In this document: positions 1,213 to 18,492 of the stretch, in pieces
How positions within the stretch are numbered: position 1 is the stretch's first letter
Layout of the letters: each line of letters opens with the position of its first letter
IMG/VR virus record: IMGVR_UViG_2563366912_000001
Strand: one strand, 5' to 3'
Length of the DNA: 20,649 nucleotides
Origin: a virus
Lineage: Duplodnaviria > Heunggongvirae > Uroviricota > Caudoviricetes
Notes under the pieces: generated by a model
Told to the model about the DNA's origin: nothing
The model's input: only the letters and a program-made list of their open reading frames with translations
Databases searched by the model: none
Translations under genes and position numbers: made by a program

Positions 1213-1512
1213 TTATAAAGTTTCCAATGCGAAATTTCGATATCTCATTAGTGCATAAATATATCTAGTAGTAGATGCAGGTGTCCATGTTCTCTCAAGT
1301 TCTTTTGCTAGTGCTGCCCCCATCATTTTCTTATCATCATCGCCAAATTTATTTACATAAGCATTTAATATTTTGATAGCTGGAGATTCAGTGACTAACC
1401 TAGCTAAAGCCCTTTCAAGGCTGATGCTTTCTAATATAACTTCTATTTTATTATTTATCACCACACCATCATCTTGTCGAGAACAAAAACCTAAAGAAAT
1501 TAAATCCTGCAC
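1213..1512 (-). CDS. Hypothetical small protein (99 aa), downstream partner of the nuclease-NTPase gene
   Basis: Open frame in AT-rich DNA where stops are frequent; GTG start at 1510-1512 overlaps the 3' end of the upstream ORF by 13 nt (stop 1500-1502), same strand, suggesting co-transcription. No recognisable motif. Confidence 0.4.
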   Translation of the reverse strand: MQDLISLGFCSRQDDGVVINNKIEVILESISLERALARLVTESPAIKILNAYVNKFGDDDKKMMGAALAKELERTWTPASTTRYIYALMRYRNFALETL

Positions 1513-3446: not shown

Positions 3447-3589
3447 TTCTATTTCAGGATGAACTAAAAGTGTTGCACTAGTATATTTTGCCGGAATGTC
3501 ATCTGTTGGAATATCCTCAACCTTACCTGTTGCAAGTATAGATATAAGAATCTCTTTTTTATCAAAAAAAGAATAATCTATACGCTCAT

Positions 3590-3598
3590 CAAGTCTAT
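3590..3598. repeat. IS1 target-site duplication, left copy (caagtctat)
   Basis: Identical 9-mer immediately outside both IS1 ends. Confidence 0.9.
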
Positions 3599-3653
3599 GG
3601 TGATGCTGCCAACTTACTGATTTAGTGTATGATGGTGTTTTTGAGGTGCTCCA

Positions 3654-3929
3654 GTGGCTTCTGTTTCTATCAGCTGTCCCTCCTGTTCAGCTACTGACGG
3701 GGTGGTGCGTAACGGCAAAAGCACCGCCGGACATCAGCGCTATCTCTGCTCTCACTGCCGTAAAACATGGCAACTGCAGTTCACTTACACCGCTTCTCAA
3801 CCCGGTACGCACCAGAAAATCATTGATATGGCCATGAATGGCGTTGGATGCCGGGCAACTGCCCGCATTATGGGCGTTGGCCTCAACACGATTTTACGTC
3901 ACTTAAAAAACTCAGGCCGCAGTCGGTAA
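3654..3929 (+). CDS. insA: IS1 InsA (91 aa)
   Basis: Translation [43 protein letters not shown]... is the IS1 InsA zinc-finger/HTH protein. Confidence 0.95.
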
Positions 3930-4351
3930 CCTCGCGCATACAGCCGGGCAGTGACGTCATCGTCTGCGCGGAAATGGACGAACAGTGGGGCTATGTCGGG
4001 GCTAAATCGCGCCAGCGCTGGCTGTTTTACGCGTATGACAGTCTCCGGAAGACGGTTGTTGCGCACGTATTCGGTGAACGCACTATGGCGACGCTGGGGC
4101 GTCTTATGAGCCTGCTGTCACCCTTTGACGTGGTGATATGGATGACGGATGGCTGGCCGCTGTATGAATCCCGCCTGAAGGGAAAGCTGCACGTAATCAG
4201 CAAGCGATATACGCAGCGAATTGAGCGGCATAACCTGAATCTGAGGCAGCACCTGGCACGGCTGGGACGGAAGTCGCTGTCGTTTTCAAAATCGGTGGAG
4301 CTGCATGACAAAGTCATCGGGCATTATCTGAACATAAAACACTATCAATAA
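3848..4351 (+). CDS. insB: IS1 InsB frame (expressed as InsAB' transposase by -1 frameshift)
   Basis: 167-aa ORF ...[54 protein letters not shown]... overlapping insA in the -1 frame. Confidence 0.9.
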
Positions 4352-4361
4352 GTTGGAGTCA

Positions 4362-4727
4362 TTACCCAAGTCTATAATCCTCAAGCGTTGACTGAGCATC
4401 TTTACCCAAATCAGAAATTGAAAAAAGTGCAATTTTTTTAACTCTCAACCTAAATGCTTGAGAAAATGCCAAATCAACCACAGATGAATCAACTTTTTGC
4501 TGCATGAATTTACATTCTACATACAGCTTTTCATTTGATGGTGTATGAGTAGCCTGAATATCAATTTCCATGCCAGATTTTCTGACTTCCATACCATCAA
4601 TTCTATACGATTGCCGGCGGAGTATATCAGCGCAAAAATTCTCGAAAAACTTCCCTCTCGAGGTATTGGAATAATTACTAGGTACACAAACTATCAAATC
4701 TTTATTCAGTGGTAACGGCCTGGCCAT
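4362..4727 (-). CDS. Mrr-type PD-(D/E)xK restriction-endonuclease-like domain; N-terminal fragment of the interrupted nuclease-NTPase gene
   Basis: Motif GKFFENF...ADIL...SGMEIDIQA...KLYVECKF fits the Mrr catalytic core (D ... E-x-K). AGGAG RBS 7 nt upstream of ATG at 4727. ORF ends in a stop created by the IS1 terminus. Confidence 0.65.
   Translation of the reverse strand: MARPLPLNKDLIVCVPSNYSNTSRGKFFENFCADILRRQSYRIDGMEVRKSGMEIDIQATHTPSNEKLYVECKFMQQKVDSSVVDLAFSQAFRLRVKKIALFSISDLGKDAQSTLEDYRLG
4367..4375. repeat. IS1 target-site duplication, right copy (caagtctat)
   Basis: Identical 9-mer immediately outside both IS1 ends. Confidence 0.9.
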
Positions 4728-4847
4728 TTATACACTCCTTATCTCATATCCTTTTGACAAGTAAGATATCAACCTCGAGTTTCAGAAACCAGTATCTTGC
4801 GCATATTTACGACATCAAAACTTTTGGTTATGCACCCACAGCGCGCA

Positions 4848-4866
4848 GTGCTTTCCCCGCCTCGCC
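4848..4866 (-). other. cos site (19-nt cohesive-end sequence of P2/P4 type)
   Basis: Reverse complement of 4841-4866 is GGCGAGGCGGGGAAAGCACTGCGCGC, matching the P2/P4 cohesive end and adjacent bases as I recall them. Position between the cargo and psu matches the P4 map. Confidence 0.75.
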
Positions 4867-4969
4867 CGCCCGCTTTGCGGGGCGGTTTTAATGCAGTTGC
4901 ACTGACACGCTCAGACCGCGCCGGGAATGGTGCGGTCTGCAGAAAATGAGGCAGGAAAACGCATGCAAA

Positions 4970-5000
4970 GCCATGCACCTTATCGATGCATGGCTTTTTT
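4970..5000. terminator. Hairpin plus T6 just beyond the psu stop; candidate bidirectional terminator
   Basis: gccatgca-(9 nt)-tgcatggc followed by tttttt on the + strand and preceded by an A-run as seen from the minus strand. Confidence 0.4.
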
Positions 5001-5030
5001 CAGTAAAAACGGGAGGATTTTCGGGGAATT

Positions 5031-5603
5031 TTACACAGACTGACGTGATGCCAGTTGCGCACTTTTACGCGAAAAAATCATGTTCTGCGCAGGGGTGAAT
5101 TTTTCACGGCTGTCATCCACCGAAGCCGCGTCAGGCCTGAATCCGATGGTCGTTAAAATGTCACTATCCTGTGCGGAATAATTAATTTTTTCCCCCTTCG
5201 CAAGCCAGGACAGAAGGGCTTCACGCAGGGCATCTGTGGCACGCTGTATGGCACAGTTTCGGGCAATGGCCGTCAGCTCACTGTAGCCCATCAGCTCCGG
5301 TGCCAGTGCCGCCGCCAGTGCTGTGCCGTGCTGCTGCATAAAATCATTCAGCCGGTCGCGGATGCTGATGTGCTGAACGGCTTCATGCGAACGAATATAA
5401 CGACCGGCGGCCTGATTCACCTGCCATTTTCTGACTTCGATAATATTGCGTAATTCGTCCAGGCGACTGACGTTTCTGCCTTCTCCTGACTGAATCCGCA
5501 GATATTCCTGTTCGGCCGCAGCCAGCTCATTTTTGCGTTGCAGCCATGCTGCTTTGTTATTCTGACAGGTGTCAAAGGCCTGCTGTAAGGCTGTGCTTTC
5601 CAT
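5031..5603 (-). CDS. psu: P4 Psu-like polarity suppression protein (190 aa)
   Basis: Length matches P4 Psu (190 aa); last gene of the sid-delta-psu late operon arrangement. Confidence 0.85.
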   Translation of the reverse strand: MESTALQQAFDTCQNNKAAWLQRKNELAAAEQEYLRIQSGEGRNVSRLDELRNIIEVRKWQVNQAAGRYIRSHEAVQHISIRDRLNDFMQQHGTALAAALAPELMGYSELTAIARNCAIQRATDALREALLSWLAKGEKINYSAQDSDILTTIGFRPDAASVDDSREKFTPAQNMIFSRKSAQLASRQSV

Positions 5604-5676
5604 CGTTATCTCTTTCTCATCATGCTGAAGAATAAAAATACGGTGTGCGGCGACGGCCGGTGTTAACCGGCAGCCC

Positions 5677-6177
5677 TCATTCCAGACGCAGCGAATATGA
5701 TTGTGTTTTTAACCGTACTGGCGGCAGTTCCTGTTTTTCATGCAGACTTTCTGCAAGCTCGTCCGGCGTGACCGGGCGGACAATGAAGCGGTTGATGGTC
5801 TGAAGCGTTTTAAACACCAGACCACAGCCCGGATCCGTGCACACATAAAAACGCTCGGTGACTTCCTGAGACAGACGCCGCGATGTTCTTGACAGCGCAA
5901 GGCCTTTACATCTCCGACAACAATATCCGGTAACAAGCATTCTTTTCGGGCGCTTCATGCTGCCGGAGGCTGACGTCAGTGAATCGCGGTATCTCTGTTT
6001 GCCTGAAATGTATTCCATTCCTGAATCTTTACAGTCAGAGAAAAAGCTTTCACTCGCTTCAAATGTCGCAGAGCAATAAATATTCCGGCACTGTGCAATC
6101 ATTATCTTGGTGCCATCGTCCATGAAATGTGCGCGACGGGTGTGAGCAACATGTCCACACGACGGGCAGTAAATCAT
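5677..6177 (-). CDS. delta: P4 Delta-like late transcription activator (tandem Ogr-type zinc fingers, 166 aa)
   Basis: Two Ogr-like modules: CPSCGHVAHTRRAH...C..IYCSATFEASES and YCCRRCKG...VCTDPGCGLVFKT. Length equals P4 Delta. Start overlaps the sid stop. Confidence 0.9.
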   Translation of the reverse strand: MIYCPSCGHVAHTRRAHFMDDGTKIMIAQCRNIYCSATFEASESFFSDCKDSGMEYISGKQRYRDSLTSASGSMKRPKRMLVTGYCCRRCKGLALSRTSRRLSQEVTERFYVCTDPGCGLVFKTLQTINRFIVRPVTPDELAESLHEKQELPPVRLKTQSYSLRLE

Positions 6178-6908
6178 GACAGCAGTCCTCTGGCCTTAAG
6201 CTTTGCTCCCTGCTGGTCTATTTTGTCCTGCCACACCTTGCGCTGTGCCGGTGTGCCTGCCACCTCATAATCCATGTGCGGGAGTGTTGCCGCTGACAGT
6301 CCGGTCAGCCGGAGAACCGGCTCGCCGGTGAGGCTGATTTGCATCTGTTTTATTTTCTGTTCCAGCGATGATTTCACCTGCTGCATGACAGCCTTTTCCG
6401 GTGCGACGTAGCCCTGATGGCCGGTGGTGTTGGCGAGCGGATTTTCCTGTACCAGGATGCTCAGATGCATTGCCCGGACAAGCGCCTCACAGGTTTCATT
6501 CAGGGCGTGTTCCAGCTCATGCTCTGCATACAGACTCAGCAGGTGATGATGTGCCTTCCGGTAGGCGGTGGCCGTGCTGTCACACGCCCCTTTCAGGCGT
6601 TCGCGTTCAAAATTCAGCACCACGGCCAGATTGTCATATTCCTGTACCAGCTCCCGGCGTGCCACGCGCTCAATGTGGCGCTGTTTCAGCTCGTCGCTCA
6701 GGACACCACCGGCTGCACGAAAGGCCGTGCGCCAGTCGTCAGCGTCGTTTCCGTCGGCCTGCGCCAGCGCATTTTTTTCCTGCTCTGCCCGTTCAATGGC
6801 CGTGACGGTCTCATCCATCAGGCGGGCGTTCTCAAGATGGGCGGCTCTGGCCTTTTCCAGTTGTGCCAGTGCGGGTTTCAGATATTCAGGGATAGTGTGG
6901 TCAGACAT
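6174..6908 (-). CDS. sid: P4 Sid-like capsid size-determination protein (244 aa from ATG at 6908; the track's longer form uses GTG at 6926)
   Basis: ATG at 6906-6908 is preceded by AGGAG with 7-nt spacing and gives MSDHTIPEYL..., 244 aa as in P4 Sid. Helix-rich, charged protein. Confidence 0.85.
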   Translation of the reverse strand: MSDHTIPEYLKPALAQLEKARAAHLENARLMDETVTAIERAEQEKNALAQADGNDADDWRTAFRAAGGVLSDELKQRHIERVARRELVQEYDNLAVVLNFERERLKGACDSTATAYRKAHHHLLSLYAEHELEHALNETCEALVRAMHLSILVQENPLANTTGHQGYVAPEKAVMQQVKSSLEQKIKQMQISLTGEPVLRLTGLSAATLPHMDYEVAGTPAQRKVWQDKIDQQGAKLKARGLLS

Positions 6909-6942
6909 TTTCCGGCTCCTCGTCACTTCAGGTTAAGAAAAT

Positions 6943-6998
6943 TGTGACGTACACCGGACAGCAACACGACGCATTGCAGATGTGCCAGCCCTGACACA
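6943..6998. promoter_or_regulatory. Divergent late-promoter region with two TGT-N12-ACA dyads (Delta/Ogr-responsive; Psid leftward and PLL-like rightward)
   Basis: TGT-gacgtacaccgg-ACA at 6943-6960 and TGT-gccagccctgac-ACA at 6981-6998, directly upstream of sid. Confidence 0.5.
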
Positions 6999-7077
6999 GG
7001 AGACTCATCCTCACACCGGCAAGCCAGGAAAAGGTCGCAGGAAAAACCGGCTTACTGTTTGTTTTTTTATATTTTAC

Positions 7078-7181
7078 TGTTCACCTCTGTTCACCTTAAT
7101 AAAAAAGATAAGTAATACAGTAAGTTAAAGGATGAACAATCGCAGTAATGACTGTTCACCGTCTGTTCACCACTGTTCACC
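7078..7181. repeat. ori-like cluster of TGTTCACC type-I iterons (alpha-binding repeats)
   Basis: Five direct TGTTCACC copies (7078, 7088, 7153, 7164, 7174) plus an imperfect inverted copy near 7132; AT-rich flanks. Confidence 0.6.
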
Positions 7182-7460
7182 CGCTCATGGACTTTTTGTG
7201 CTGTTTACTACTGTTTGTTTTTATTAATTCGCCGGGAATGAATAAGAAGAAACGATTTGTATTTCACTATAAAAATTACAAATTGCTTTAAGTGGCTTTA
7301 AATGACTTTAAGTGGAAATGAACAAAAAACACACAACCATTGTAAGGCTGCCGGAACAAATCCCCCCTGTTGCGTCTGCTGAAAATATTCACAAAATAAA
7401 GCGCTACCCGAAGCCGGACGGACTTATCCGGTGCTGTATGGACATTAACGAGGTAGCCCG

Positions 7461-7727
7461 ATGCAAGCTGTTTTTTCTTCCCCGTCTCCCGCCCCTGTGA
7501 CGCCACTGATGCCGCTGCCGGACATCACACAGGAGCGTTTTTTACGTCTTCCGGAAGTGATGCACCTGTGCGGCCTGTCACGCTCGACCATCTATGAACT
7601 CATCCGTAAGGGGGAATTTCCGCCGCAGGTGAGTCTTGGCGGTAAAAATGTGGCCTGGCTGCACTCTGAAGTCACCGCATGGATGGCCGGCCGCATTGCC
7701 GGACGCAAACGGGGGTACGACGCATGA
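7461..7727 (+). CDS. AlpA/Vis-family small DNA-binding regulator (prophage excision/late-promoter regulator; start uncertain, alternative ATG at 7509)
   Basis: ...[51 protein letters not shown]... is the AlpA-type HTH signature. Sits as first gene after the PLL-like promoter, as P4 vis does. Confidence 0.7.
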
Positions 7728-7821
7728 TGATGCCTGTTCTGCAAAAAGTCCCTTTTTCTGGCTTGCCTTTTTCCGGCATTTGCGGATATAGTTTTTCCGC
7801 TGCCGCAAAATCGGCAGCCGG

Positions 7822-7847
7822 GCGTGAGAACCCGTGTAACTCGAAGG
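7822..7847 (+). promoter_or_regulatory. seqA-like target element of the P4-type RNA immunity system
   Basis: gcgtgagaac...ctcgaagg repeated at 8065-8106 and complementary to 8020-8040. Confidence 0.35.
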
Positions 7848-7855
7848 CGACATAT

Positions 7856-7877
7856 GACGCGCCATGCGTCTTTTTTT
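7856..7877 (+). terminator. Intrinsic terminator-like hairpin in the early-operon leader (candidate immunity terminator)
   Basis: gacgcgccatgcgtc stem-loop followed by T7. Confidence 0.5.
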
Positions 7878-7939
7878 GTGTCGCAATCAACGCCACAGAG
7901 CGCCAGATTATGGTGTGGCGTGTGGTTTGCCGTGCAGGT

Positions 7940-8060
7940 ATGATCCTGTTCGCAATCGCATGTTATGCCACTGAGTCAATGGTAGCTCAGGCGGGGCAGC
8001 CTCCGGGCTGGCCGGTATTCTTCGAGGCCGGTATTCTCACCCCCGTCTGGGCTATCGCCA
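7940..8060 (+). ncRNA. Candidate CI-like immunity RNA region containing a seqB-like element (8020-8040); boundaries approximate
   Basis: Structured GC-rich non-coding stretch between the leader terminator and the next RBS. cttcgagg...attctcac is the complement of the seqA/seqC motifs. Contains a tRNA-like GGTAGCTCAG segment. Confidence 0.3.
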
Positions 8061-8064
8061 TCGA

Positions 8065-8106
8065 GCGTGAGAACTCCGGCGATAGCAGTTATTTGCTACT
8101 CGAAGG
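8065..8106 (+). promoter_or_regulatory. seqC-like element overlapping the RBS of the 65-codon ORF
   Basis: gcgtgagaac...ctcgaaggagg; the AAGGAGG RBS for the ATG at 8117 lies inside the repeat. Confidence 0.35.
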
Positions 8107-8116
8107 AGGCTGCCTT

Positions 8117-8314
8117 ATGGCTACAACCCTTACCCCCTCACACCCTGAATTTGTCTTTGTGTTTGCGGCTGTCCGTCGCGCAGACCGTCATCCCCGTATC
8201 TGCATGCTTCGCACCGTCGCCGGTGATGAACGCAGCGCCCGCCGTTCCCTTGTCCGTGACTATGTGCTCTCCCTTGCTGCCCGTCTGCCGGTGGTGGAGG
8301 TGTCCCGTGCGTAA
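8117..8314 (+). CDS. Small early-operon protein (65 aa; possible kil-like gene, function unassigned)
   Basis: AAGGAGG 7 nt upstream of the ATG. The track's longer 211-codon form has no support upstream. Confidence 0.5.
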
Positions 8315-8594
8315 TAAAAAAGCCCCTCAGACCGTCTCAGCACGTCATGACGCCCGTGAACACCTCAGCATTGAGGCTTACCATAAGCTCAACCGCGCCA
8401 GCGCCGTATCCCAGTTTGTTGGGGGTGATTTGATTCACCGTGAACTCTCCGGCCTGCATCAGCTCTACATTCCGCATATTTTCAGCTACCTGAATGAAGA
8501 TATTGATTTTGTGCTGAATGAGCTGAAAGCCAAAGGCCTGTGCCGCGATTTTCTCGCCCAGCAGAAAGACCGGGGAGACAGGACGCATGTTTGA
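8307..8594 (+). CDS. Small early-operon protein (95 aa; candidate epsilon-like derepressor)
   Basis: GTG start with GGAGG 6 nt upstream; start overlaps the preceding stop and its stop overlaps the next start (ATGTTTGA). Confidence 0.5.
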
Positions 8595-9042
8595 TTTTCC
8601 CCAGCCCGGTGAGATTTACCGTTCTGCCGGTTTTCCCGATGTGGCCGTGGTCGGCATTCTGGAAGACGGTATTCCGTGGGAAATGCCGTACCGCTGCCCG
8701 GACATTGTCTGGAACCCGTACCGCCGTAAATTCAGTATCCTTGTGCGTATCCTCGATGACGGGCGCACCACAGACATCCCGCTGGGGCGTTTTCTGCGGG
8801 AATTTACCTGTGACCGTCCTGACCTGTTTAAACGCAGCCCCGTAAACCGGCATGCGGTACTGAAAGAAATGGCCGGAGACCCGGAATTACAGAAATGGCG
8901 GGAGAAATATCTGGATATTTACCCGCAGGACACTGTTCCGGCCAGCCGGGCGGCACCGGTGGCGCGGGAATGGCGGGAAATTCCCCGCACGGAGCCTGAC
9001 CCGGAAATCACCCCGGATAACAGTTACCGCAATTATCTGTAA
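8587..9042 (+). CDS. P4 orf151-like hypothetical protein (151 aa)
   Basis: Translationally coupled to the upstream ORF; same length as P4 orf151; typical codon usage. Confidence 0.55.
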   Translation: MFDFPQPGEIYRSAGFPDVAVVGILEDGIPWEMPYRCPDIVWNPYRRKFSILVRILDDGRTTDIPLGRFLREFTCDRPDLFKRSPVNRHAVLKEMAGDPELQKWREKYLDIYPQDTVPASRAAPVAREWREIPRTEPDPEITPDNSYRNYL

Positions 9043-9177
9043 TTAAAAAACGATACCCGAAAAATTAAATGTGCGTATTCGCGCAGGGATACGCACGTCT
9101 TCAGGAGACGCAGATATGCCTTATCAGTTAATGCAACCGGCACGGAATGCAGTCATCTGTCACAGGGAGGAAAACAA

Positions 9178-9498
9178 ATGAAAACACCCTTACCGCCCGT
9201 CTTACGCGCTGCCCTTTACCGTCGCGCTGTCGCCTGTGCCTGGCTGACCGTGTGCGAACGTCAGCACCGCTACCCGCATCTCACCCTTGAGTCACTGGAG
9301 GCGGCCATCGCCGCTGAGCTGGAAGGCTTTTATCTGCGCCAGCACGGTGAGGAAAAAGGGCGTCAGATAGCCTGTGCCCTGCTGGAAGATTTAATGGAAT
9401 CCGGCCCCCTGAAGGCCGCGCCGTCGCTGTCCTTTCTCGGGCTGGTTGTGATGGATGAACTCTGTGCCCGTCACATAAAAGCGCCGGTACTGCACTGA
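9178..9498 (+). CDS. Hypothetical early-operon protein (106 aa)
   Basis: GGGAGG RBS upstream of the ATG; lies directly upstream of the primase gene. Confidence 0.55.
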
Positions 9499-11343
9499 AG
9501 GAGAACAACACCATGAAAATGAACGTAACCGCCACCGTCAGCCATGCGCTCGGCCACTGGCCGCGTATTCTCCCGGCGCTGGGGATTCAGGTGCTGAAGA
9601 ACCGTCATCAGCCCTGTCCGGTCTGTGGCGGGAGTGACCGCTTCCGTTTTGATGACAGGGAGGGGCGTGGCACCTGGTACTGCAATCAGTGTGGTGCCGG
9701 TGACGGCCTGAAACTGGTTGAAAAGGTGTTTGGTGTTTCCCCGTCCGACGCGGCCGCAAAGGTGGCTGCCGTGACCGGCTGCCTGCCCCCGGCTGACCCG
9801 GCAGTGACGGCCGCCGCCGGTGCTGAAACAGAAGCCGCCCGGAAGAACGCCGCCGCACTGGCACAAACCCTGATGGCAAAAACCCGTCCCGGAACCGGTA
9901 ACGCCTACCTGACCCGCAAGGGCTTTCCCGGCCGGGAATGCCGGATGCTGACCGGCACACACAGAGCCGGTGGCGTGAGCTGGCGCGCCGGTGACCTTGT
10001 GGTGCCACTGTATGACGACAGCGGCGAACTGGTTAACCTTCAGTTAATCAGTGCTGACGGCCGTAAGCGCACCCTGAAAGGCGGACAGGTCAGGGGCACC
10101 TGTCACACCCTTGAAGGACAGAATCAGGCAGGAAAACGTCTGTGGATAGCGGAGGGATACGCGACCGCACTTACCGTGCATCACCTGACCGGTGAAACGG
10201 TGATGGTGGCGCTTTCTTCCGTGAACCTCCTTTCTCTGGCCAGCCTTGCCCGACAGAAGTATCCGGCCTGTCAGATTGTCCTTGCCGCAGACCGTGACCT
10301 CAGCGGTGACGGCCAGACAAAAGCCGCCGCAGCCGCAGATGCGTGTGAGGGCGTTGTTGCCCTGCCGCCGGTCTTCGGTGACTGGAATGATGCCTTCACG
10401 CAGTACGGCGGGGAGGCCACCCGTAAGGCCATTTACGATGCCATCCGGCCACCGGCTGAAAGCCCGTTCGACACCATGAGCGAAGCGGAGTTTTCCGCCA
10501 TGAGTACCAGCGAAAAGGCCATGCGTATCTATGAGCATTACGGCGAGGCGCTCGCGGTTGATGCCAACGGCCAGCTTCTGTCCCGCTATGAAAATGGTGT
10601 CTGGAAGGTGCTGCCACCACAGGACTTTGCCCGGGATGTGGCCGGGCTGTTTCAGCGTCTGCGCGCGCCGTTCTCCTCCGGGAAGGTGGCCTCCGTGGTG
10701 GACACCCTGAAGCTGATTATTCCGCAGCAGGAAGCCCCCTCCCGCCGCCTGATTGGCTTTCGTAACGGCGTGCTCGACACGCAGAACGGCACGTTCCACC
10801 CGCACAGTCCGTCACACTGGATGCGCACCCTGTGCGATGTGGATTTCACCCCGCCGGTGGACGGTGAAACACTGGAGACCCACGCCCCCGCGTTCTGGCG
10901 CTGGCTTGACCGTGCCGCCGGTGGCCGTGCGGAAAAACGCGACGTGATTCTGGCCGCACTGTTTATGGTGCTGGCAAACCGCTACGACTGGCAGCTCTTT
11001 CTGGAGGTGACCGGTCCCGGCGGCAGCGGCAAAAGTATCATGGCCGAAATAGCCACCCTGCTGGCTGGTGAGGATAACGCCACGTCGGCCACCATCGAGA
11101 CGCTGGAATCCCCGCGTGAACGTGCCGCGTTAACTGGCTTCTCACTGATACGCCTGCCGGACCAGGAAAAATGGAGCGGCGACGGAGCCGGACTCAAGGC
11201 CATCACCGGCGGCGATGCGGTGTCCGTTGACCCGAAATACCGGGATGCGTACTCCACGTGCGTATTACCGTGAAGGAGATCGGTGAGTAACATCGATGGA
11301 GATCGGTTCGTGTCACTTTCACAGAACCGTTTTTAAATTACCT

Positions 11344-12093
11344 TCACTGATCTCCTTCGGTCAACGGAGATTGTATTTTCCGCATTGATTCTCCTTTAAG
11401 TTCGATCTTGATACTGCCATGAACCAGTCGATCTAGGATGGCATCCGCATGTGTGGAGTCTCCGATCATTTTGTACCAGTTTTCCACCGGCAACTGGCTC
11501 ACTACGATGATTGAGCCTCGTTGGTACATCAGATCCACTATTTCCAGCAGGTCGCTACGCTGTTCTGATGAGAGAGGTTCCAGCCCCCAGTCATCCAGAA
11601 GCAGCAGATCGCTATTATTCAGCCTGGTCAAAAGTTTGCTGTATCTTCCATCAGCATGCCCCTGATAGCACTGTTCCATCAGCGCTTTAAGGCGATAATA
11701 GTAGACCTTGTATCCCTGTCGGCAGGCATTATGACCAAGTGCACATGCCAGGAACGTTTTACCGCTGCCGGTGGCCCCGGTCAGTAAAATATTTTGTTTC
11801 AGGGTTAACCAGTTTCCCTGACTGAGTGAACGGATGAGGGCCCTGTCCAGCCCTCTATTGTTACGATAATCCAGCTTTGATAACTCAGCATTAAGTCTGA
11901 ACCGTGCATGTTTGATCAGACGCTCTGCCTTCCTGTTTTCACGGCAGGTTAGTTCTTCTGCTGTCAGTAATGACAGGCGTTCTTCGAAGCCCAGCTCCTG
12001 GTATGTGCCCGGCTGAGCAAGTTGCTTTTTAAGCGCATCACGGAAGCCGGTGAGTTTAAGTGCGGTCAGTTGTTCGTAAAGATGATTCATCAT
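11344..12093 (-). CDS. istB: IS21-family IstB helper ATPase (249 aa)
   Basis: Walker A LLTGATGSGKTFLACALG and Walker B LLLLDDWG; gene follows istA with an 11-nt gap. Confidence 0.9.
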   Translation of the reverse strand: MMNHLYEQLTALKLTGFRDALKKQLAQPGTYQELGFEERLSLLTAEELTCRENRKAERLIKHARFRLNAELSKLDYRNNRGLDRALIRSLSQGNWLTLKQNILLTGATGSGKTFLACALGHNACRQGYKVYYYRLKALMEQCYQGHADGRYSKLLTRLNNSDLLLLDDWGLEPLSSEQRSDLLEIVDLMYQRGSIIVVSQLPVENWYKMIGDSTHADAILDRLVHGSIKIELKGESMRKIQSPLTEGDQ

Positions 12094-12104
12094 TGGATCC
12101 CGTA

Positions 12105-13646
12105 TCAGTGGTAATACTCACTGCCGCGTACGTTTTCGTGTTCCATCGTGGATAACAGATCTGGTTTTGGATCCTGAACAGGTTGTTTATCCAGACCTTT
12201 TTCCAGGATCGATTTAATACCTGACAGACGCCATACCTTTGTTTTCAGAGCTCTTGCACATGCTGCATTAAGTCTGGCTTTACTGTATTTTTTATGAAGG
12301 TTCAGGAGTCCAAGGCAGAAGCGATAGCTTTGTTCCGGATGTGGACGAGAGTTCAGTATATGAAGCACATAACTATGAGTTTCACTGCCTATGTGCCCCG
12401 CCCATTCCAGAAGACGCTCTGGCGTCCAGGTGGCATGCTGTCGATGAGCTTCAGGCATGTGCTCGTTGCGGGTACTGTAGCCATAAGTACGCTTGCGCGG
12501 GTGCACAGCAACCTCCTGCCCCTGATTGAAGAGTCTTACCAGTTCTCCGGAGATCCATGCTTCCAGTTGCTGGCCTAACAGCGAACATGGAACCGAGTAG
12601 TAATGTTTGTCGATTTCCACGTGGTAATCGGCATGAACTCTGACTTTCTTCACCAGGGTGTAACTGTAACTGGCTTCAGGAAGAGGCTTCAGTGCGGGTT
12701 TATCAAGCTGGATGAAGAGTTCTGCACGTGAATAACCCAACTTCTGCATTATTTTGTTATTCAGTCTTTCCAGCAACTCCCGAATGCGCTGATTAAGCGA
12801 TGCAAGGCTGTAGAAGATCTCATGCCTGATTCGGGCCATGATCCAGCGTTCAACAACCTGAACGCCAACTTCAGCTTTGGCTTTATCTTTCGGTTTACGT
12901 GGCCGCGCAGGCAAAACTGCGACATTATAATGCTCAAGCATCTGCTGGTAGGTAGGGTTAACGTCAGGATCATACTTACATGCCCTGGATGTGGCGCTTT
13001 TCAGATTGTCCGGAACAACAAGTTCAGGAACGCCACCCAACCACTGGAAGCAGCGAACATGACTCATCACCCAGTCTTCAAGATGCTGAGACCAGGTGGC
13101 CTCTGCCCATGTGTAACTTGATGCCCCGAGAACAGCTACGATGACCTGAGCAGTTCTTATTTCTCCGGTCTCAGGGTCGGTAACGCCAACGGTAGGTCCA
13201 CAGTAATCAACGAAAAGTTTTTCGCCAGCTTTATGTACCTGACGCATTGATGGTGAAGTGGTTTTGAGCCATTCACGGTACATCCGGCAGTAATGGTTAT
13301 AGCTGTAAAAACCGCCTGGATTACGCTCACAGTATTCTTCCCAGAGTAGCTGCAGCGTCACGCATTTATTACGCAGTTCCCGGTGTACTGTAGCCCAGTC
13401 AGGCAGAGAGTGCTTCTTCATCTTAACCTGGGTCTGAAGGAACGCATGTTTTAGTTTTGTATCATCCCATCCTGTAGGTAAGGGCCACTGCTTTATGCCA
13501 AGTTGAGCCGCCCGATTAGCATATCTGGATACAACGGAAGGGGAGATTGCAAGACTACGACCAATTTGTCGATGGCTGAGTCCAACACCGTATTTAAGCC
13601 TAAGAATTTCTTTAAGTTTTCTCATAGAAATTGGAACTGTTGGCAT
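12105..13646 (-). CDS. istA: IS21-family IstA transposase (513 aa)
   Basis: N-terminal HTH (LSHRQIGRSLAISPSVVSRY) followed by an integrase-core-like region; AAGGA RBS; paired with istB. Confidence 0.9.
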   Translation of the reverse strand: MPTVPISMRKLKEILRLKYGVGLSHRQIGRSLAISPSVVSRYANRAAQLGIKQWPLPTGWDDTKLKHAFLQTQVKMKKHSLPDWATVHRELRNKCVTLQLLWEEYCERNPGGFYSYNHYCRMYREWLKTTSPSMRQVHKAGEKLFVDYCGPTVGVTDPETGEIRTAQVIVAVLGASSYTWAEATWSQHLEDWVMSHVRCFQWLGGVPELVVPDNLKSATSRACKYDPDVNPTYQQMLEHYNVAVLPARPRKPKDKAKAEVGVQVVERWIMARIRHEIFYSLASLNQRIRELLERLNNKIMQKLGYSRAELFIQLDKPALKPLPEASYSYTLVKKVRVHADYHVEIDKHYYSVPCSLLGQQLEAWISGELVRLFNQGQEVAVHPRKRTYGYSTRNEHMPEAHRQHATWTPERLLEWAGHIGSETHSYVLHILNSRPHPEQSYRFCLGLLNLHKKYSKARLNAACARALKTKVWRLSGIKSILEKGLDKQPVQDPKPDLLSTMEHENVRGSEYYH

Positions 13647-14450
13647 AGGTATCCTTTACCGGAATGGCAAAAGATACAGATCAACACACCTGTGAAGTTC
13701 CAATAACATTGATGGAGATCACTGAATAACAAAATGAGTCAAAAGTGATCTCCATCGATGTTATTCAGCGATCTGTTCAAATGTTATTACCCGATCTCGA
13801 TGGAAGTTATTGAGTGATCTCCTTTCATGAAAATACGCACTCCACGCACATCCCGGCGGTAATTCTGGCCGTGAACAATAACCCGATGCGCTTCACCGAC
13901 CGCAGCGGCGGCGTGTCACGCCGGCGGGTGATTATTCACTTCCCGGAACAGATAGCCCCGCAGGAGCGCGACCCGCAGCTTAAGGACAAAATCACCCGCG
14001 AGCTGGCGGTCATCGTGCGTCACCTGATGCAGAAGTTCAGCGACCCGATGCTCGCCCGGTCACTGCTTCAGTCCCAGCAGAACTCAGACGAGGCACTGAA
14101 CATCAAACGGGATGCCGACCCGACGTTTGATTTTATCGGCTATCTGGAAACCCTGCCGCAGACCAGCGGCATGTATATGGGGAACGCCAGTATCATCCCG
14201 CGTAATTACCGTAAATACCTCTATCACGCCTATCTGGCCTACATGGAGGCAAACGGCTACCGGAATGTACTCAGTCTGAAAATGTTCGGGCTGGGGCTGC
14301 CGGTGATGCTGAAGGAATACGGACTGAATTACGAGAAGCGCCATACCAAACAGGGGATACAGACCAACCTGACGCTGAAAGAGGAAAGCTACGGCGACTG
14401 GCTGCCAAAATGTGACGACCCTGCAACAACCTGACCATCATGACTCATCT

Positions 14451-14474
14451 GACCGGCATCTGCCGGTCTTTTTT
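14451..14474 (+). terminator. Rho-independent terminator after alpha
   Basis: gaccggca-tc-tgccggtc followed by T6, 17 nt after the alpha stop. Confidence 0.6.
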
Positions 14475-14483
14475 CATCCCTGA

Positions 14484-14797
14484 ATCCCCCGAAGGTGAAC
14501 AATCCAGTGTTCACCCTTCACCGTATGTTCACCCGTTATCACACTGAAATCAAAAGAGAAAAACGAAAGGTGAACAGTGTGAACAATCAAATCAAAAAAA
14601 ACTTTTTTTCTTCCTGTGTGATTTTCAGTGCGGAGGATTAATCGCCGGTATGAGTCACACCGGCAGAATGCCGGAGGTGAAGAATCGAATGTTCACCCTT
14701 CACCCATTATTCACCACCTATCCAACTGAAATAAAAGGAAAAAACAGAAAGGTGAACAGTGTGAACAGTTCTTCCGAAAAAAAATTTTTTTCCTGTA
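14484..14797. repeat. crr-like cis replication region: two ~125-bp direct repeats, each with TGTTCACC/GGTGAACA iterons
   Basis: Copy 1 about 14484-14608 and copy 2 about 14674-14797 share gaaggtgaa...atgttcacccttcacc...aaaggtgaacagtgtgaaca...A/T runs. Confidence 0.65.
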
Positions 14798-15077
14798 CGA
14801 TATAGCATCAATCCAAGTAAAAATGCGCTTTCATTTCACATTAACTTACAGCCATTGGTATACGATTAGGTATACGCACAAAAACTGAATTAAACAAAAT
14901 CATTAAAAATCAAAGCAATACAATATTTATTCAAACTCCGCCAGCCAATCATGATTGGACGGTATAAGGACAACACCAATAAAAACAGGAAGTTAGCAGT
15001 CTCAGCAGGACACCGACCAGACGGTGAAGAGACATAAAAGGATACGCAAAGGAGCCGCGGCTCCTGGTGACATGAAA

Positions 15078-15107: not shown

Positions 15108-18100
15108 TCAGAACGACCAGTTCACACCAGCTACCCCGTTCCACGGGGATTCCACACCGGCACCATGGCTATACCCCACCCCAAGATGCCCGCTTAACGT
15201 ACTGCTGAATGAGGCTTTAATACCTGCCTGGTATATTCCACGTCTGCCCGACAAATCATTGACGAAATTACCGTCACTATTCACTTTCACCCGGTTATCA
15301 TCGACAAATTCTTTGCGCACAGCCGCCTTCAGCCACGGCTCAACTTCCATACCGTTCCCCAGACGCATGTTGTAACTCAGCGTTGCACCCAGTTCACGAT
15401 ATAAACTGCGGGTATCGACTGATTTCGATTCCATGCCATTGGATAAATGATATTCAGGGTTATCAGCGGTGAACCCCCGTTAACGATGCATACGGCGTCA
15501 GGTTCCAGTTACCATCGGTAAATCGCATCCCGGTTTCAATGTGACCGCCCAGCCCGTAGCTGCGATAACTGCCGTTGGCGGCTCCACCGCTGCCAACCGT
15601 GGAGTCGCGAGCTTCGGTACCTGCTAATACCAATAAATTACCGCCATTTTCCAGCAACATATTGGTCGCTAAATTGCCGGAAATGGAAAAAGTGCCGTAC
15701 TGGTGAGTACCGCTGATTTCAATACCGTTAGCCGTGCTCGTCTGGAGAGCGGCACCGCTGTTCTGGACGATATCTGTCGCTTTGCCATTATCGTTAACTG
15801 TCAGCGTACCGCCTTCATTGATCTTTGTTTTTATTGCCTCTCCGTTAGCTGAAACTGTTTGTATTCCGCCGTCGTTAATCGTTGTCTCATTCGCCACCCC
15901 CTCGACGATTTGTTCGCCGCCGGTGAGCGTCGTGCCTGTCGCAGTGGCTTTTGTTTTGACGATCTCCCGTCCGCCCGTATTGACCTGTGTTTTGTCAGAA
16001 GAGGTGTCTGACTCCACGGTTAACACGCCGCCATTTGCCAGCAGGATATTGTTCGCCGCACCCTGCTCGATGCTGAACGCGACGCCATCCGCGCGTGTTC
16101 CTGTGACCCGCGTCGCCCTGGTGGTTGCAACCAAAGCGCCCTGGCTACTCTGCTGTATCCCCGTTGCGCTGCCTTTCTCCCGCACATCGAGTGTGCCGCC
16201 GTCATTAAGCACCGAGTTTTCAGCCAGACCGCCCTCATTAACTACCTGTGAACACCCATTAATAATGGAACCTTCCGCTATCCCGTTTGCCATAATTTGT
16301 TGTAGGCCAGAGACGATATCGGTATTGATCGCCTTACCATAATTCTGAACGGTTTGTGTGCCGCCATTGATGTGCGTTTTGTCAGTTGACCCACCATCAA
16401 CAATTTGTTCACCACTTTCAATATTTGCCTCAGTGGCTAAACCATATACCGTTTGCTTGCCACCTTTGATATTTGCTTTATCAGAAGTGGCACTGGCATA
16501 TATTGTTTGGGTGCCAGCACTATTAAGTACAGTGCCAACATCTTTTCCATAAACATCCATTTTGCCGTTGGCATTAATAATCGTATCAACTGCCCGGGAA
16601 CCAGTGACGACTGTTAATGAGCCAGCGTTTTCCAGCACTACATTTTTAGCTTCTGAATTCCTGATGTAGAAAGCATCACCATAACTGTTGGTTCCTTCGA
16701 TAAGGGTTCCGGAAGTTGTGGAAGCAATTAATGCGCCGCCGGATTGTTGCTCAACATGCTTAGCCTCACCACCGTCCTGAACCTCCAGAACGCCACCATT
16801 ATTAAGTCTGGTGGTATCTGTTTTAGCCTCCTTCTGGACAATCAGCTTACCGCCAGCATCAACGGTAGTATTTTTCGCCGAGGTTTTAGCCACTACCGTC
16901 AGTTCGCCGGTATTTTCCAGCACAACATAATTAGCCTCCCCTCCGGTAATAGTGAAGTGAGAGAGCTTGTTGTATCCTTCAATATCAGTCCCTGCGCCCG
17001 TGTTGGCAACTAAAGCACTGCCCGTCTCCTGGTTAACCCCATGTGCAATACCGCCGGTATAGACAATCAGCGAGCCTCCGGCGCTAATATTGCTGCCAAT
17101 TGCCGTACCATCTTTCTCAACAACTTGCTGGCTCCCGGAGGATATAATTGTTGTGTCAGCTTTCCCACCGCTTTTGATATTTTGCGTTCCGCTGTTGATA
17201 TTGGTGCCTGTGGCTATGCCATAATTATTAAGATTCTGTGTGCCACCATTAATTATGGTATTTGTCGCGTTTCCTGCAACATCCATAACCCCGCCATTAT
17301 CTATTCGGGTCGCATCAGCTTTAGCATTCGTTAAAACTGACATTGTTCCTTTATCTTTAATAATCGTCTTGTTTGCGGAATGAGATACTTCTAAATGGCC
17401 TCCATTTTCCAGCAACACATTGTCTTCCACTTTATTGTGGATGGAGAATGCACCTTCACTATTCGTACCGCTCACCGTCGTACCGTTAGTGTTTGTTTTT
17501 AAAATTGCACCATCGTGCTGGGTAACATTTGTTGCCGTACCACCACTAACATCAAGCACGCCACCGGAATAAACTTCAATAACATCCGAGGTGCTGGTGT
17601 TATCAACAATTTGCGTGCCACCAGAATAGATCTGCGTAATTTTTGCCGTTGACTTACTATTCAGAGACTGAGTTCCGCCTTCAATCGTCGTGTCCAGCGC
17701 ACGGCTCTCATATACTCTTTGCTCACCGCCATTTTTAATGGTTGTTGTTTCTACTGTGCTCTGTTCAACATACTGTCGACCACCATTTATGGTTGTGTTC
17801 GTTGCCAGACTTCCTTGTACTACGTCCTGAGAGCCAGACTTATTTATCGTTGTACCATCAGCATGCCCTTGAACTTTTACTATCTGGCTACCACCATCAA
17901 TGAGTATTCCATTCGCACTCCCTCCCTCTACGCGTGAAGCACCGCCCTTAATTGTCGTTCCATTGCTGATACCCCCTTTATAAACGTCCTGATTGCCACT
18001 CTCGATTGTCGTACCTGTGGAAATACCCCCGTCATGAATTGACTGTCTGCCACCGTTAATGGTTGTATTATTAGCCTGCCCCACAAAATTGTTATGACTT

Positions 18101-18492
18101 CCTATATCTTGATATCCACCAGATTCAATAAGACTTCCATTAGATACCCCGCCATGAACATTCTGCTGGCCATGGTTGATAATATGAGTGTTATTTGTTG
18201 TACCTCGTTCATCCACTTTTTGGTTGCCATCTACAGTCTCATCGTTTACCACACCAATAACATCAGGAGTGAAGGCCGCCATACCGGGCGGGGCATATAT
18301 CAAGGCAGATATCAATAAGGAAAGTACTGAGCGGCGACAATAATGGGGACTGGTCCTGTTCATAAATTTCATCCTCTGAAAAGTGAATACTGAGTAGCGT
18401 TTAAGCGACCTTAGCTCTGCTGCAACATCAGCCCACAGGCACCAGACCAGGGGATTCATCCTGAAGAGACAGCGCAAGTGTATTGTGTTCAC
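15108..18492 (-). pseudogene. AIDA-I-type autotransporter adhesin, disrupted: passenger ORF (15463-18492, probable start near 18363-18372) and beta-domain C-terminal ORF (15108-15434) in different frames
   Basis: Extended signal peptide MKFMNRTSPHYCRRSVLSLLISALIYAPPGMAA. About 900 aa of degenerate beta-helix repeats (TTINGG.Q..). C-terminus ...LGVGYSHGAGVESPWNGVAGVNWSF is a beta-barrel terminal strand. Frames separate at a C5/G5 tract (15474-15478). Translocator portion looks too short for a 12-strand barrel. Confidence 0.75.

Follow-up and report, generated by a model that had tools for sequence, protein, structure and literature searches.

Organization of the satellite and its cis-acting sites

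The window, i.e., the whole stretch of 20,649 nucleotides analyzed here, begins at the start codon of an integrase gene and carries a P4-like satellite with the following features.

1 to 1188, plus strand: int, 395 amino acids (aa), with Arm-DNA-bind_3, Phage_int_M, and Phage_integrase domains
1213 to 3598, minus strand: C-terminal ~795 codons of the cargo gene (alignment to twin; Pfam)
3599 to 4366, plus strand: IS1, 768 bp, with InsA/InsB domains
4367 to 4727, minus strand: N-terminal fragment of the cargo gene, with the Mrr_cat nuclease domain (Pfam; alignment to twin)
4848 to 4866: cos, 19-nt cohesive end (reverse complement of GGCGAGGCGGGGAAAGCAC), intact by comparison with P4
5031 to 5603, minus strand: psu, full length, 188/190 residues as in P4
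5677 to 6177, minus strand: delta, full length, 163/166 residues as in P4
6174 to 6908, minus strand: sid, full length, 243/244 residues as in P4
6909 to 7460: sid-vis control region, 11 substitutions relative to P4 in 552 bp, none in the dyad half-sites
6981 to 6998: TGT-N12-ACA dyad upstream of sid, half-sites unchanged
7078 to 7181: ori type-1 iterons (control region, comparison with P4)
7286 to 7315: ori type-2 repeats (control region, comparison with P4)
7341 to 7358: TGT-N12-ACA dyad upstream of vis, half-sites unchanged
7461 to 7727, plus strand: vis/alpA, left operon, upstream of alpha
7679 to 8314, plus strand: Ash-family ORF over the immunity region, left operon
8307 to 8594, plus strand: epsilon, left operon
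8587 to 9042, plus strand: orf151, left operon
9178 to 9498, plus strand: cnr/orf106, left operon
9513 to 11258, plus strand: alpha codons 1 to 582 (Zn ribbon, Toprim primase, D5_N, Walker A, Walker B)
11252 to 11258: left target-site duplication copy CTCCACG, 7 bp
11259 to 13839, minus strand: ISEc12 (IS21 family), 2581 bp (identity to annotated copies, Pfam, repeats)
11344 to 12093, minus strand: istB, 249-aa ORF, IstB_IS21 (E = 2e-67)
12105 to 13646, minus strand: istA, 513-aa ORF, rve and Mu-transpos_C_2
13840 to 13846: right target-site duplication copy CTCCACG, 7 bp
13847 to 14434, plus strand: alpha codons 583 to 777 (helicase motif C, arginine-rich stretch, origin-binding winged-helix domain)
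14451 to 14475: alpha terminator, 3' of alpha
14489 to 14790: crr, two ~120-bp repeats with 10 type-1 iterons
14936 to 14955: attR-like core CTCCGCCAGCCAATCATGAT, a shortened form of the 3' end of ssrA

The backbone from cos to crr is colinear with P4 at 96 to 98% nucleotide identity, with homology starting at position 4841, and all of its ORFs besides alpha are intact. The late operon psu-delta-sid (5031 to 6908) lies on the minus strand, and the left operon upstream of alpha spans positions 7461 to 9498. Psu, Delta, Sid, Vis, epsilon, Orf151, and Cnr are full length and 97 to 100% identical to the P4 proteins, and the immunity stretch (7728 to 8306), with 51 differences, is the region most diverged from P4. 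From the late promoters of P2 and P4, we take both TGT-N12-ACA dyads to be Delta/Ogr sites. Among the annotated repeats, 8 of 9 in ori and 9 of 10 in crr are identical to those of P4 (17/19 in total), and the sequence-only reading, in which int, cos, sid-delta-psu, both dyads, the ori iterons, and crr looked intact, is confirmed. All seven genes of the P4-like core set, int, psu, delta, sid, alpA, epsilon, and alpha (PMC8628076), are colocalized in P4 order, with alpha present as two fragments. Of the functional replication module (an intact alpha together with ori and crr), ori and crr are intact and alpha is split at codon 582.

The tmRNA gene ssrA immediately precedes int in the source genome, with its 3' end forming attL (CTCCCGCCAGCTCCACCAAATCATGAT), and the 488 bp upstream of the satellite in one locus (L008) are 100% identical to the ssrA 3' region. 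The int gene has the same coordinates as WP_000124712.1 in an IS-free twin locus of Escherichia coli and in another related locus, with no base differences from the twin, and int, vis, and attL are intact in sequence. The shortened attR core is common to the twin and another related locus (L004) and is not particular to the window copy; a CP4-57-like remnant (ypjA, ypjCB) adjoins attR on its downstream side. From attL to attR, the satellite now measures ~15.1 kb and, without both IS elements, ~11.8 kb, compared with 11.6 kb for P4.

In the twin, the intact cargo product is a 913-aa Mrr_cat-nSTAND1 NTPase, for which PADLOC gave only a marginal DndF match (E = 4e-4) and assigned no known defense system. 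In the window, IS1 interrupts this gene at about codon 118, flanked by the 9-bp target duplication CAAGTCTAT (3590 to 3598 and 4367 to 4375), and the loss of 4 bp from a (TGAA)3 run near position 1534 shifts the frame at about codon 806. With these two lesions, the only cargo gene of the satellite is dead.

ISEc12 and the interrupted alpha gene

The element within alpha is 100% identical over all 2581 bp to E. coli copies annotated as "IS21-like element ISEc12 family." It is a copy of a common, named element without any difference, and only its insertion site is particular to the lineage of the window. Its istA and istB genes are intact and consecutive, constituting the IS21 gene pair of a DDE (rve) transposase and an AAA+ helper ATPase. 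The termini are of the TG...CA form (TGCGTATT... and ...AATACGCA), and GGAGATC-type motifs are repeated at both ends. The insertion point lies after codon 582 of the P4-type alpha primase-helicase gene. Target duplications range from 4 to 8 bp in the IS21 family, and those of ISEc12 insertions in sister satellites are 5 to 8 bp long. Terminal inverted repeats of the form 5'-TG...CA-3' with multiple direct repeats (L1/L2 and R1/R2) have been described for the IS21 family, in which IS5376 generates a 5-bp duplication (PMC10122671), and an ISEc12 copy in tssM of ST131 is likewise flanked by 5 bp (PMC10711316).

The rebuilt 100-nt empty site, which contains CTCCACG once, is present at 100% identity in many E. 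coli genomes, and in the twin, position 11258 is joined directly to position 13847 with no sequence loss. Because the empty site is intact in other genomes and the twin shows this direct junction, CTCCACG is a true target duplication and not the edge of an older deletion, which the sequence-only reading had named as a way in which it could be wrong. That reading had described the 2.58-kb IS21-family istA/istB element, its multi-repeat inverted termini, and the ctccacg repeat correctly to the base. The exact alpha/ISEc12 junction of the window is absent in finished genomes, and the two records matching both halves of the query carry ISEc12 elsewhere. Misassembly of a repeat-rich genome could be considered as the origin of the junction, as the window derives from a draft scaffold and the contigs of sister assemblies are interrupted at both IS elements. 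However, the clean 7-bp duplication of a sequence that is single in the empty site argues against such an artifact, as does the same truncated, junction-spanning 586-aa product, found by exact-protein look-up on 5 contigs of NCBI assemblies; in addition, equivalent ISEc12 insertions with duplications of 5 to 8 bp occupy 17 other sites in the sister satellites of finished genomes. We consider the probability of misassembly to be negligible. In a second assembly, one contig extends exactly from IS1 to ISEc12.

When ISEc12 and one repeat are removed, the rebuilt alpha gene (9513 to 11258 plus 13847 to 14434) comprises 2334 nt, encoding 777 codons plus a stop, which agrees with the earlier proposal of an in-frame resumption and a product of the size of P4 alpha. 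The rebuilt protein is colinear with P4 alpha, with 767 of 777 residues identical (98.7%), 10 substitutions, and no gaps, and it has all of the domains, including the Zn ribbon, Toprim (EGYATA), D5_N, the P-loop helicase core, and the C-terminal origin-binding domain. As it stands, the window gene does not encode this P4 alpha-type domain set in one polypeptide. The alpha sequence ends at position 11258, as had been read, but the interrupted ORF itself continues for 15 nt into ISEc12 to a stop at position 11273, giving a 586-aa product that consists of aa 1 to 582 and four IS-derived residues and ends in ...YSTCVLP. In the rebuilt protein, the P-loop core (DUF5906) occupies aa 500 to 608, with Walker A at aa 501 to 508, the Walker A/B span at aa 501 to 551, motif C at aa 588 to 594, and motif C with the arginine-rich stretch at aa 588 to 612; the origin-binding domain (Pox_D5/PDB 1KA8) follows at aa 671 to 770. 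The ISEc12 cut lies between Walker A/B and motif C with the arginine-rich stretch and also detaches the origin-binding domain.

On the basis of this domain architecture and the literature, the satellite would almost certainly be unable to replicate on its own, because the helicase core is split, the origin-binding domain is detached, and alpha is needed for ori/crr-dependent replication; a statement in PMC8628076, citing Ziegelin 1993, describes alpha as essential for P4 replication. The inactivation of alpha by an IS21-family element, as had been read, is supported, and the suggestion that the satellite is replication defective was a reasonable one. The 586-aa product keeps the whole primase domain (Zn ribbon and Toprim, with EGYATA at aa 214 to 219) and could retain some activity, an in-frame ORF of 206 codons (13814 to 14434) spans the origin-binding domain, and the cis sites cos, ori, and crr are all intact. 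In addition, genomes with 2 to 5 P4-like copies exist, with some E. coli genomes carrying up to 4 or 5 alpha copies, and a second P4-like element could supply replication in trans. These features would favor a satellite that still functions, with replication supported by the two alpha fragments or by another resident alpha and with mobilization by a helper. However, the insertion divides the helicase core after Walker B and before motif C, a promoter scan found no promoter-like site reading into the alpha 3' fragment or outward from ISEc12, and the ~15.1-kb length exceeds the 11.6 kb of P4 (PMC7552001), so that we regard continued function as quite improbable. The 11.6-kb genome of P4 is the size that fits the Sid-determined T=4 capsid (PMC7552001); the literature searched gave this fit but no maximum length of DNA that the P4 capsid can package. 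At ~30% longer than the small-capsid fit, packaging of the satellite by a helper, which had been held possible from the sequence, is doubtful on this size argument, although cos, sid, psu, and delta are intact.

Recurrence of ISEc12 in P4-like satellites and the origin of the lesions

Of 958 satellite-bearing complete E. coli genomes, 53 carry ISEc12 in or adjoining the P4-like backbone; this number combines queries carrying ISEc12 in each orientation, which gave 34 genomes and 19 more. An even spread of the 5553 ISEc12 copies would give about 1.8 such places. Among 19 loci examined, 18 distinct insertion sites were found, so that at least 18 insertions are independent. In two cases, at the psu 3' end and between two crr iterons, a pair of independent insertions is separated by 1 bp. 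As a control, IS1, which is roughly ten times more abundant than ISEc12, is located within the backbone in no more than 2 genomes. A preference for alpha was rejected, with 6 of the 18 sites in a gene that makes up 32% of the backbone length. An apparent orientation bias, with ISEc12 antiparallel to alpha in 8 of the first 9 sister insertions (9/10 with the window), was dropped because the search had joined only same-strand pieces. Among species-representative genomes, the ISEc12 end had only one match, a 546-bp contig.

The window insertion is one instance of a recurrent event, the insertion of ISEc12 throughout the backbones of P4-like satellites in many E. coli lineages, and this recurrence may be new. 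That ISEc12 truly prefers these backbones as a target and is a recurrent natural inactivator of P4-like satellites is a tentative reading, which we hold to be slightly less probable than its opposite. If it is true, the window would reflect a specific interaction between the IS and the satellite and not random decay, and ISEc12 would measurably restrict the mobility of satellites in E. coli populations. Both IS elements of the window are real, but their co-occurrence, which had been called notable, is only mildly so, with ISEc12 alone found in about 5% of such satellites.

The window thus carries a P4-type satellite integrated at the ssrA 3' end, and the E. coli lineage concerned includes assembly GCA_000408245.1 together with a few relatives. 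Most likely, the satellite has very recently suffered three inactivating hits: ISEc12 transposed into alpha after codon 582, generating the 7-bp target duplication, IS1 transposed into the cargo gene, and the (TGAA) run of the cargo gene lost one repeat unit. Without its own replication, either after derepression or as a plasmid, the satellite would be a passively replicated chromosomal passenger, and helper-mediated transfer would be very inefficient at ~15.1 kb.

The sequence-only reading had regarded the satellite as probably domesticated. Under domestication, the host lineage would gain from an immobilized satellite whose cargo or regulatory function is useful, and the loss of alpha would have been selected for this reason. 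Defective P4-like islands with intact defense genes have been described, and these lose the primase more often than any other core gene (PMC13586616), and all other P4 genes of the window satellite are intact, as domestication would have it. However, the sole cargo gene is doubly inactivated, and the lesions, in a satellite 2 SNPs away from its twin in 17.3 kb, are so young that there has been no time for visible purifying selection. In addition, other ISEc12 insertions lie in psu, vis, cnr, orf151, ori, and crr, as undirected insertion gives. As the cargo is dead and ISEc12 hits alpha only as often as the length of the gene predicts, there is no sign of selection for immobilization with a useful gene kept, and domestication is very improbable. 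The state of the satellite is best described as early decay, and we are confident that a P4-type satellite has recently decayed through ISEc12 in alpha and IS1 and a frameshift in the cargo gene, with replication lost.

Comparison with known satellites

The window satellite resembles P4 (NC_001609/X51522) in gene order and orientation from cos to crr and in its conserved ori/crr iterons and 19-nt cos end. It differs from P4 in that the gop-beta-cII-int-attP arm is replaced by another integrase (395 aa, ssrA specific, whereas P4 uses leuX) and a different cargo gene, and in its diverged immunity region and interrupted alpha.

The closest relatives are the satellites of E. coli EC1722-1 (NZ_CP081192.1), the twin referred to above, and STEC346, which share the same integrase, cargo, backbone, and downstream ypjA/ypjCB remnant and are 100.0% and 99.9% identical to the window, respectively, over the shared 84% of its length. 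The EC1722-1 locus, an IS-free copy of the kind with which comparison had been proposed, lacks ISEc12, IS1, and the 4-bp deletion and otherwise differs only by the 2 SNPs, and a further island separates its satellite from ssrA. The window locus matters little by itself, but it is a clean, datable example of the death of a phage satellite, and together with its intact twin, it provides a convenient natural alpha knockout for studying the excision and transfer of a nonreplicating, oversized P4-like element.

The defective or type B (alpha-less) P4-like elements of Moura de Sousa and Rocha likewise combine a P4-like core with a primase pseudogene. Such elements are reported to be frequent (PMC8628076), and in defective P4-like elements, no other core gene is pseudogenized as commonly as the primase (PMC13586616). 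Unlike in those elements, the loss of alpha in the window is due to one identifiable IS insertion, which is reversible in principle, and the defense-hotspot gene is also a pseudogene, which is reported to be rare (<1% of P4 pseudogenes) (PMC13586616). The cargo gene is thus a counterexample to the reported rule that defense-hotspot genes in P4-like elements are swapped rather than pseudogenized. Primase pseudogenes in defective P4-like elements are already known, and the window satellite is a case of ordinary, recent decay by mobile elements.

Interruption of alpha by ISEc12

The alpha primase-helicase gene is split in the window by an element of 2581 bp whose limits, from the reading of the junctions, are 11259 and 13839. 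Two open reading frames (ORFs) on the plus strand carry the two parts of alpha, and two on the minus strand lie within the element.

ORFs of the interrupted alpha gene (ORF list; products from Pfam)
9513-11273, plus strand: 586-codon ORF
11344-12093, minus strand: 249-codon ORF, IstB_IS21 ATPase
12105-13646, minus strand: 513-codon ORF, rve/Mu-type transposase
13814-14434, plus strand: 206-codon ORF

The element starts with TGCGTATT and finishes with AATACGCA, has several copies of a GGAGATC-containing motif at each end, and is flanked on both sides by CTCCACG (11252-11258 and 13840-13846). It is 100% identical over its full length to RefSeq-annotated copies of ISEc12, a member of the IS21 family that is present in 1909 of 5426 complete E. 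coli genomes. Joining 9513-11258 to 13847-14434, with ISEc12 and a single copy of the repeat removed, yields an alpha gene of 2334 nt (777 codons) with its sole stop at the end. The rebuilt protein matches P4 alpha at 99% over residues 1-773 in tblastn, and a global alignment of the two has 10 substitutions and no gaps. The sequence-only reading had proposed that an IS21-family element cuts alpha, and this is confirmed by the junctions, the repeats, and the rebuilt frame. Pfam and PDB comparisons gave the following domain order.

Domains and motifs of rebuilt alpha
Residues 30-66: Zn ribbon
Residues 210-299: Toprim, with EGYATA at 214-219
Residues 336-467: D5_N
Residues 500-608: P-loop core, DUF5906
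Residues 501-508: Walker A
Residues 588-594: motif C
Residues 606-612: arginine-rich stretch
Residues 671-770: Pox_D5 origin-binding domain (solved P4 structure 1KA8)

ISEc12 follows codon 582, a position inside the NTPase core and ahead of the origin-binding domain, and the product as now encoded consists of residues 1-582 followed by CVLP. A promoter scan found no promoter-like site ahead of the 3' fragment. Alpha is described as essential to P4 replication in PMC8628076, which cites Ziegelin 1993. From established P4 biology, the truncated protein would neither form a working helicase nor bind ori and crr, so that the element would be incapable of amplification after derepression or of plasmid life. 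The replication defect proposed earlier is, given this biology and an insertion in the NTPase core, likely.

Many E. coli genomes contain an exact match to the rebuilt 100-nt empty site, and copies spanning at least 80% of this query occur in 1043 genomes. In addition, a whole-locus twin free of both IS was found in strains EC1722-1 (NZ_CP081192.1) and STEC346. The alignment of the window with EC1722-1 falls into three blocks, which overlap by precisely the 9-bp duplication of IS1 at one boundary and the duplication of ISEc12 at the other. The possibility that the element sits in an older deletion, with flanking repeats that are not a true target duplication, is refuted by the intact empty sites and the block overlaps; judged from these alignments, the ISEc12 event is a simple insertion. 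Once both IS are set aside, window and twin are separated over 17.3 kb by a single 4-bp deletion and a pair of SNPs (5746 and 8626), with no difference in the 6.8 kb downstream of ISEc12. Because this divergence is so small, all three lesions (ISEc12, IS1, and the 4-bp deletion) are dated as very recent.

Backbone, integration site, and element size

The window is colinear with P4 from the right cos end to the crr end (4841-14790) at 96-98% identity. The psu, delta, sid, vis (orf88), epsilon, orf151, and cnr (orf106) genes are full length, with proteins 97-100% identical to those of P4. The window retains an intact 19-nt cohesive end (4848-4866), 17 of the 19 repeats annotated in P4 ori and crr are identical and in position, and the alpha terminator was detected. 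TGT-N12-ACA dyads with unchanged half-sites precede sid (6981-6998) and vis (7341-7358), and by comparison with P2 and P4 late promoters they are read as Delta/Ogr sites. The P4-like backbone, as had been supposed, is otherwise intact. Unlike in P4, the gop-beta-cII-int arm is swapped for a 395-aa tyrosine integrase and a single low-GC cargo gene. The immunity/cI region (7728-8306) shows the strongest divergence from P4 (51 differences, a 9-bp indel among them), and its neighbors are genes 97-100% identical to P4; this suggests an immunity specificity differing from that of P4. A 211-codon Ash-family ORF (7679-8314) overlaps this region. A conserved 69-codon ORF (4769-4978, minus strand), located between cos and the cargo gene, is hypothetical in relatives and has no Pfam match. 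A census of P4-like elements reported a small gene shared across the family but missing from P4, and this ORF is a candidate for it.

None of the 5426 complete E. coli genomes carries the exact alpha/ISEc12 junction. Five NCBI contigs encode a product identical to the 586-aa one; the first, a 2.25-Mb scaffold of GCA_000408245.1, includes the window, and another (GCA_000326765.1) extends from immediately beyond IS1 into ISEc12 and so shares the double-IS state. The 488 bp preceding int in the source genome match the 3' portion of ssrA and its spacer without a difference, which places the satellite at the tmRNA gene, the site of the K-12 P4-like cryptic prophage CP4-57. A ypjA/ypjCB remnant lies downstream of the satellite. 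The ypjA autotransporter gene (15108-18492, minus strand) is broken into two ORFs, one of 1009 codons and one of 108 codons that encodes the beta-barrel; it is a pseudogene in the twin (RefSeq) and an intact 4.6-kb gene in other strains. The attR-like core at 14936-14955 is a shortened form of the attL core, a copy of the ssrA 3' end, and about 6 bp present in attL and in the AH21C062 attR are missing from it. This shortened core recurs in the twin and another strain, and an identical or similar one was found in every examined locus with a ypjA remnant after the satellite. Of the parts relevant to excision, int, vis, and attL are intact, and attR is imperfect throughout the window's lineage.

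The element measures about 15.1 kb from attL to attR, or about 11.8 kb without both IS. The T=4 capsid specified by Sid accommodates 11.6 kb (PMC7552001), so efficient packaging of a 15.1-kb genome is unlikely; an upper packaging limit of the P4 capsid was not found in the literature. On this size comparison, the packaging by a helper envisaged in the sequence-only reading is doubtful.

ISEc12 in other P4-like satellites

Searches with the backbone and the IS, each orientation being queried separately, found ISEc12 in or adjoining the backbone in 53 of the 958 complete E. coli genomes with a near-complete backbone, a count inflated by survivorship in dispensable DNA. An orientation bias in the first sample was a search artifact, as the opposite-orientation query recovered 19 genomes versus 34 in the window's orientation. 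The 19 loci examined represent 18 distinct sites, with every IS full length and flanked by 5-8-bp duplications.

Distinct ISEc12 sites in P4-like satellites
alpha: 6
psu: 3
crr: 2
Intergenic: 2
ori type-2 repeat: 1 (strain AH21C062)
vis: 1
Ash-like ORF: 1
orf151: 1
cnr: 1

Special targeting of, or selection on, alpha is ruled out, since the gene holds 33% of the sites and makes up 32% of the backbone. Two pairs of independent insertions lie 1 bp apart in opposite orientations in different strains, one at the psu 3' end (window ~5037/5038; B1-56 and 160-11H1) and one between two crr type-1 iterons (~14579/14580; 146 and MS 85-1). Only 0.06 such pairs are expected (P of at least two, ~0.002), which suggests that the psu 3' end and crr are local hot spots for ISEc12. 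According to PMC10122671, IS21-family elements lack strong target specificity.

Spread evenly over 28 Gb, the 5553 ISEc12 places would put about 1.8 in these backbones; among them, at least one big block stems from one clonal event, an insertion into tssM in ST131 (PMC10711316). As a control, IS1, which has about 10 times more copies, was found joined to the backbone of 15 genomes and could be internal to it in no more than 2; the limited number of pieces per hit makes this search undercount IS1. IS1 prefers AT-rich DNA, and the GC content of the satellite backbone is 55-65%. In a set of clinical E. coli genomes (AR_0149-0151, WCHEC strains, ESY001-003, and others), an ISEc12 end adjoins a "replication endonuclease" gene, interpreted as P2-like prophage gene A. 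Copies elsewhere border phage tail, portal, and tape-measure genes; prophage DNA is therefore a frequent location. P4 is not a subject in any of the titles and abstracts listed for 20 of the 23 papers mentioning ISEc12. The association of ISEc12 with satellites is the only part of this analysis that might be worth further work.

Cargo gene and standing of the locus

The cargo gene (1213-4727, minus strand) lies in the P4 defense hotspot. Its product in the twin is 913 aa long and combines a Mrr_cat nuclease domain at the N-terminus with an nSTAND1/AAA_16 NTPase; PADLOC (2023) gave no convincing match for it. In the window, the gene is broken by IS1 (3599-4366, 9-bp duplication) at about codon 118 and by the loss of one unit from (TGAA)3 at ~1534, which throws the gene out of frame at about codon 806. 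This loss, the sole indel between window and twin apart from the IS, looks like a slipped-strand frameshift. Domestication is unsupported, because the gene of putative benefit is inactivated and the lesions are too young for selection to be visible. The earlier interpretation thus stands for the structure and the likely replication defect but not for domestication or packaging.

The locus is an ordinary event of an already described kind. In a survey of P4-like elements, the primase is the most frequently pseudogenized core gene of defective elements, and defense-gene-like pseudogenes are rare, at <1% (PMC13586616); the locus fits the former trend and is an exception to the latter.
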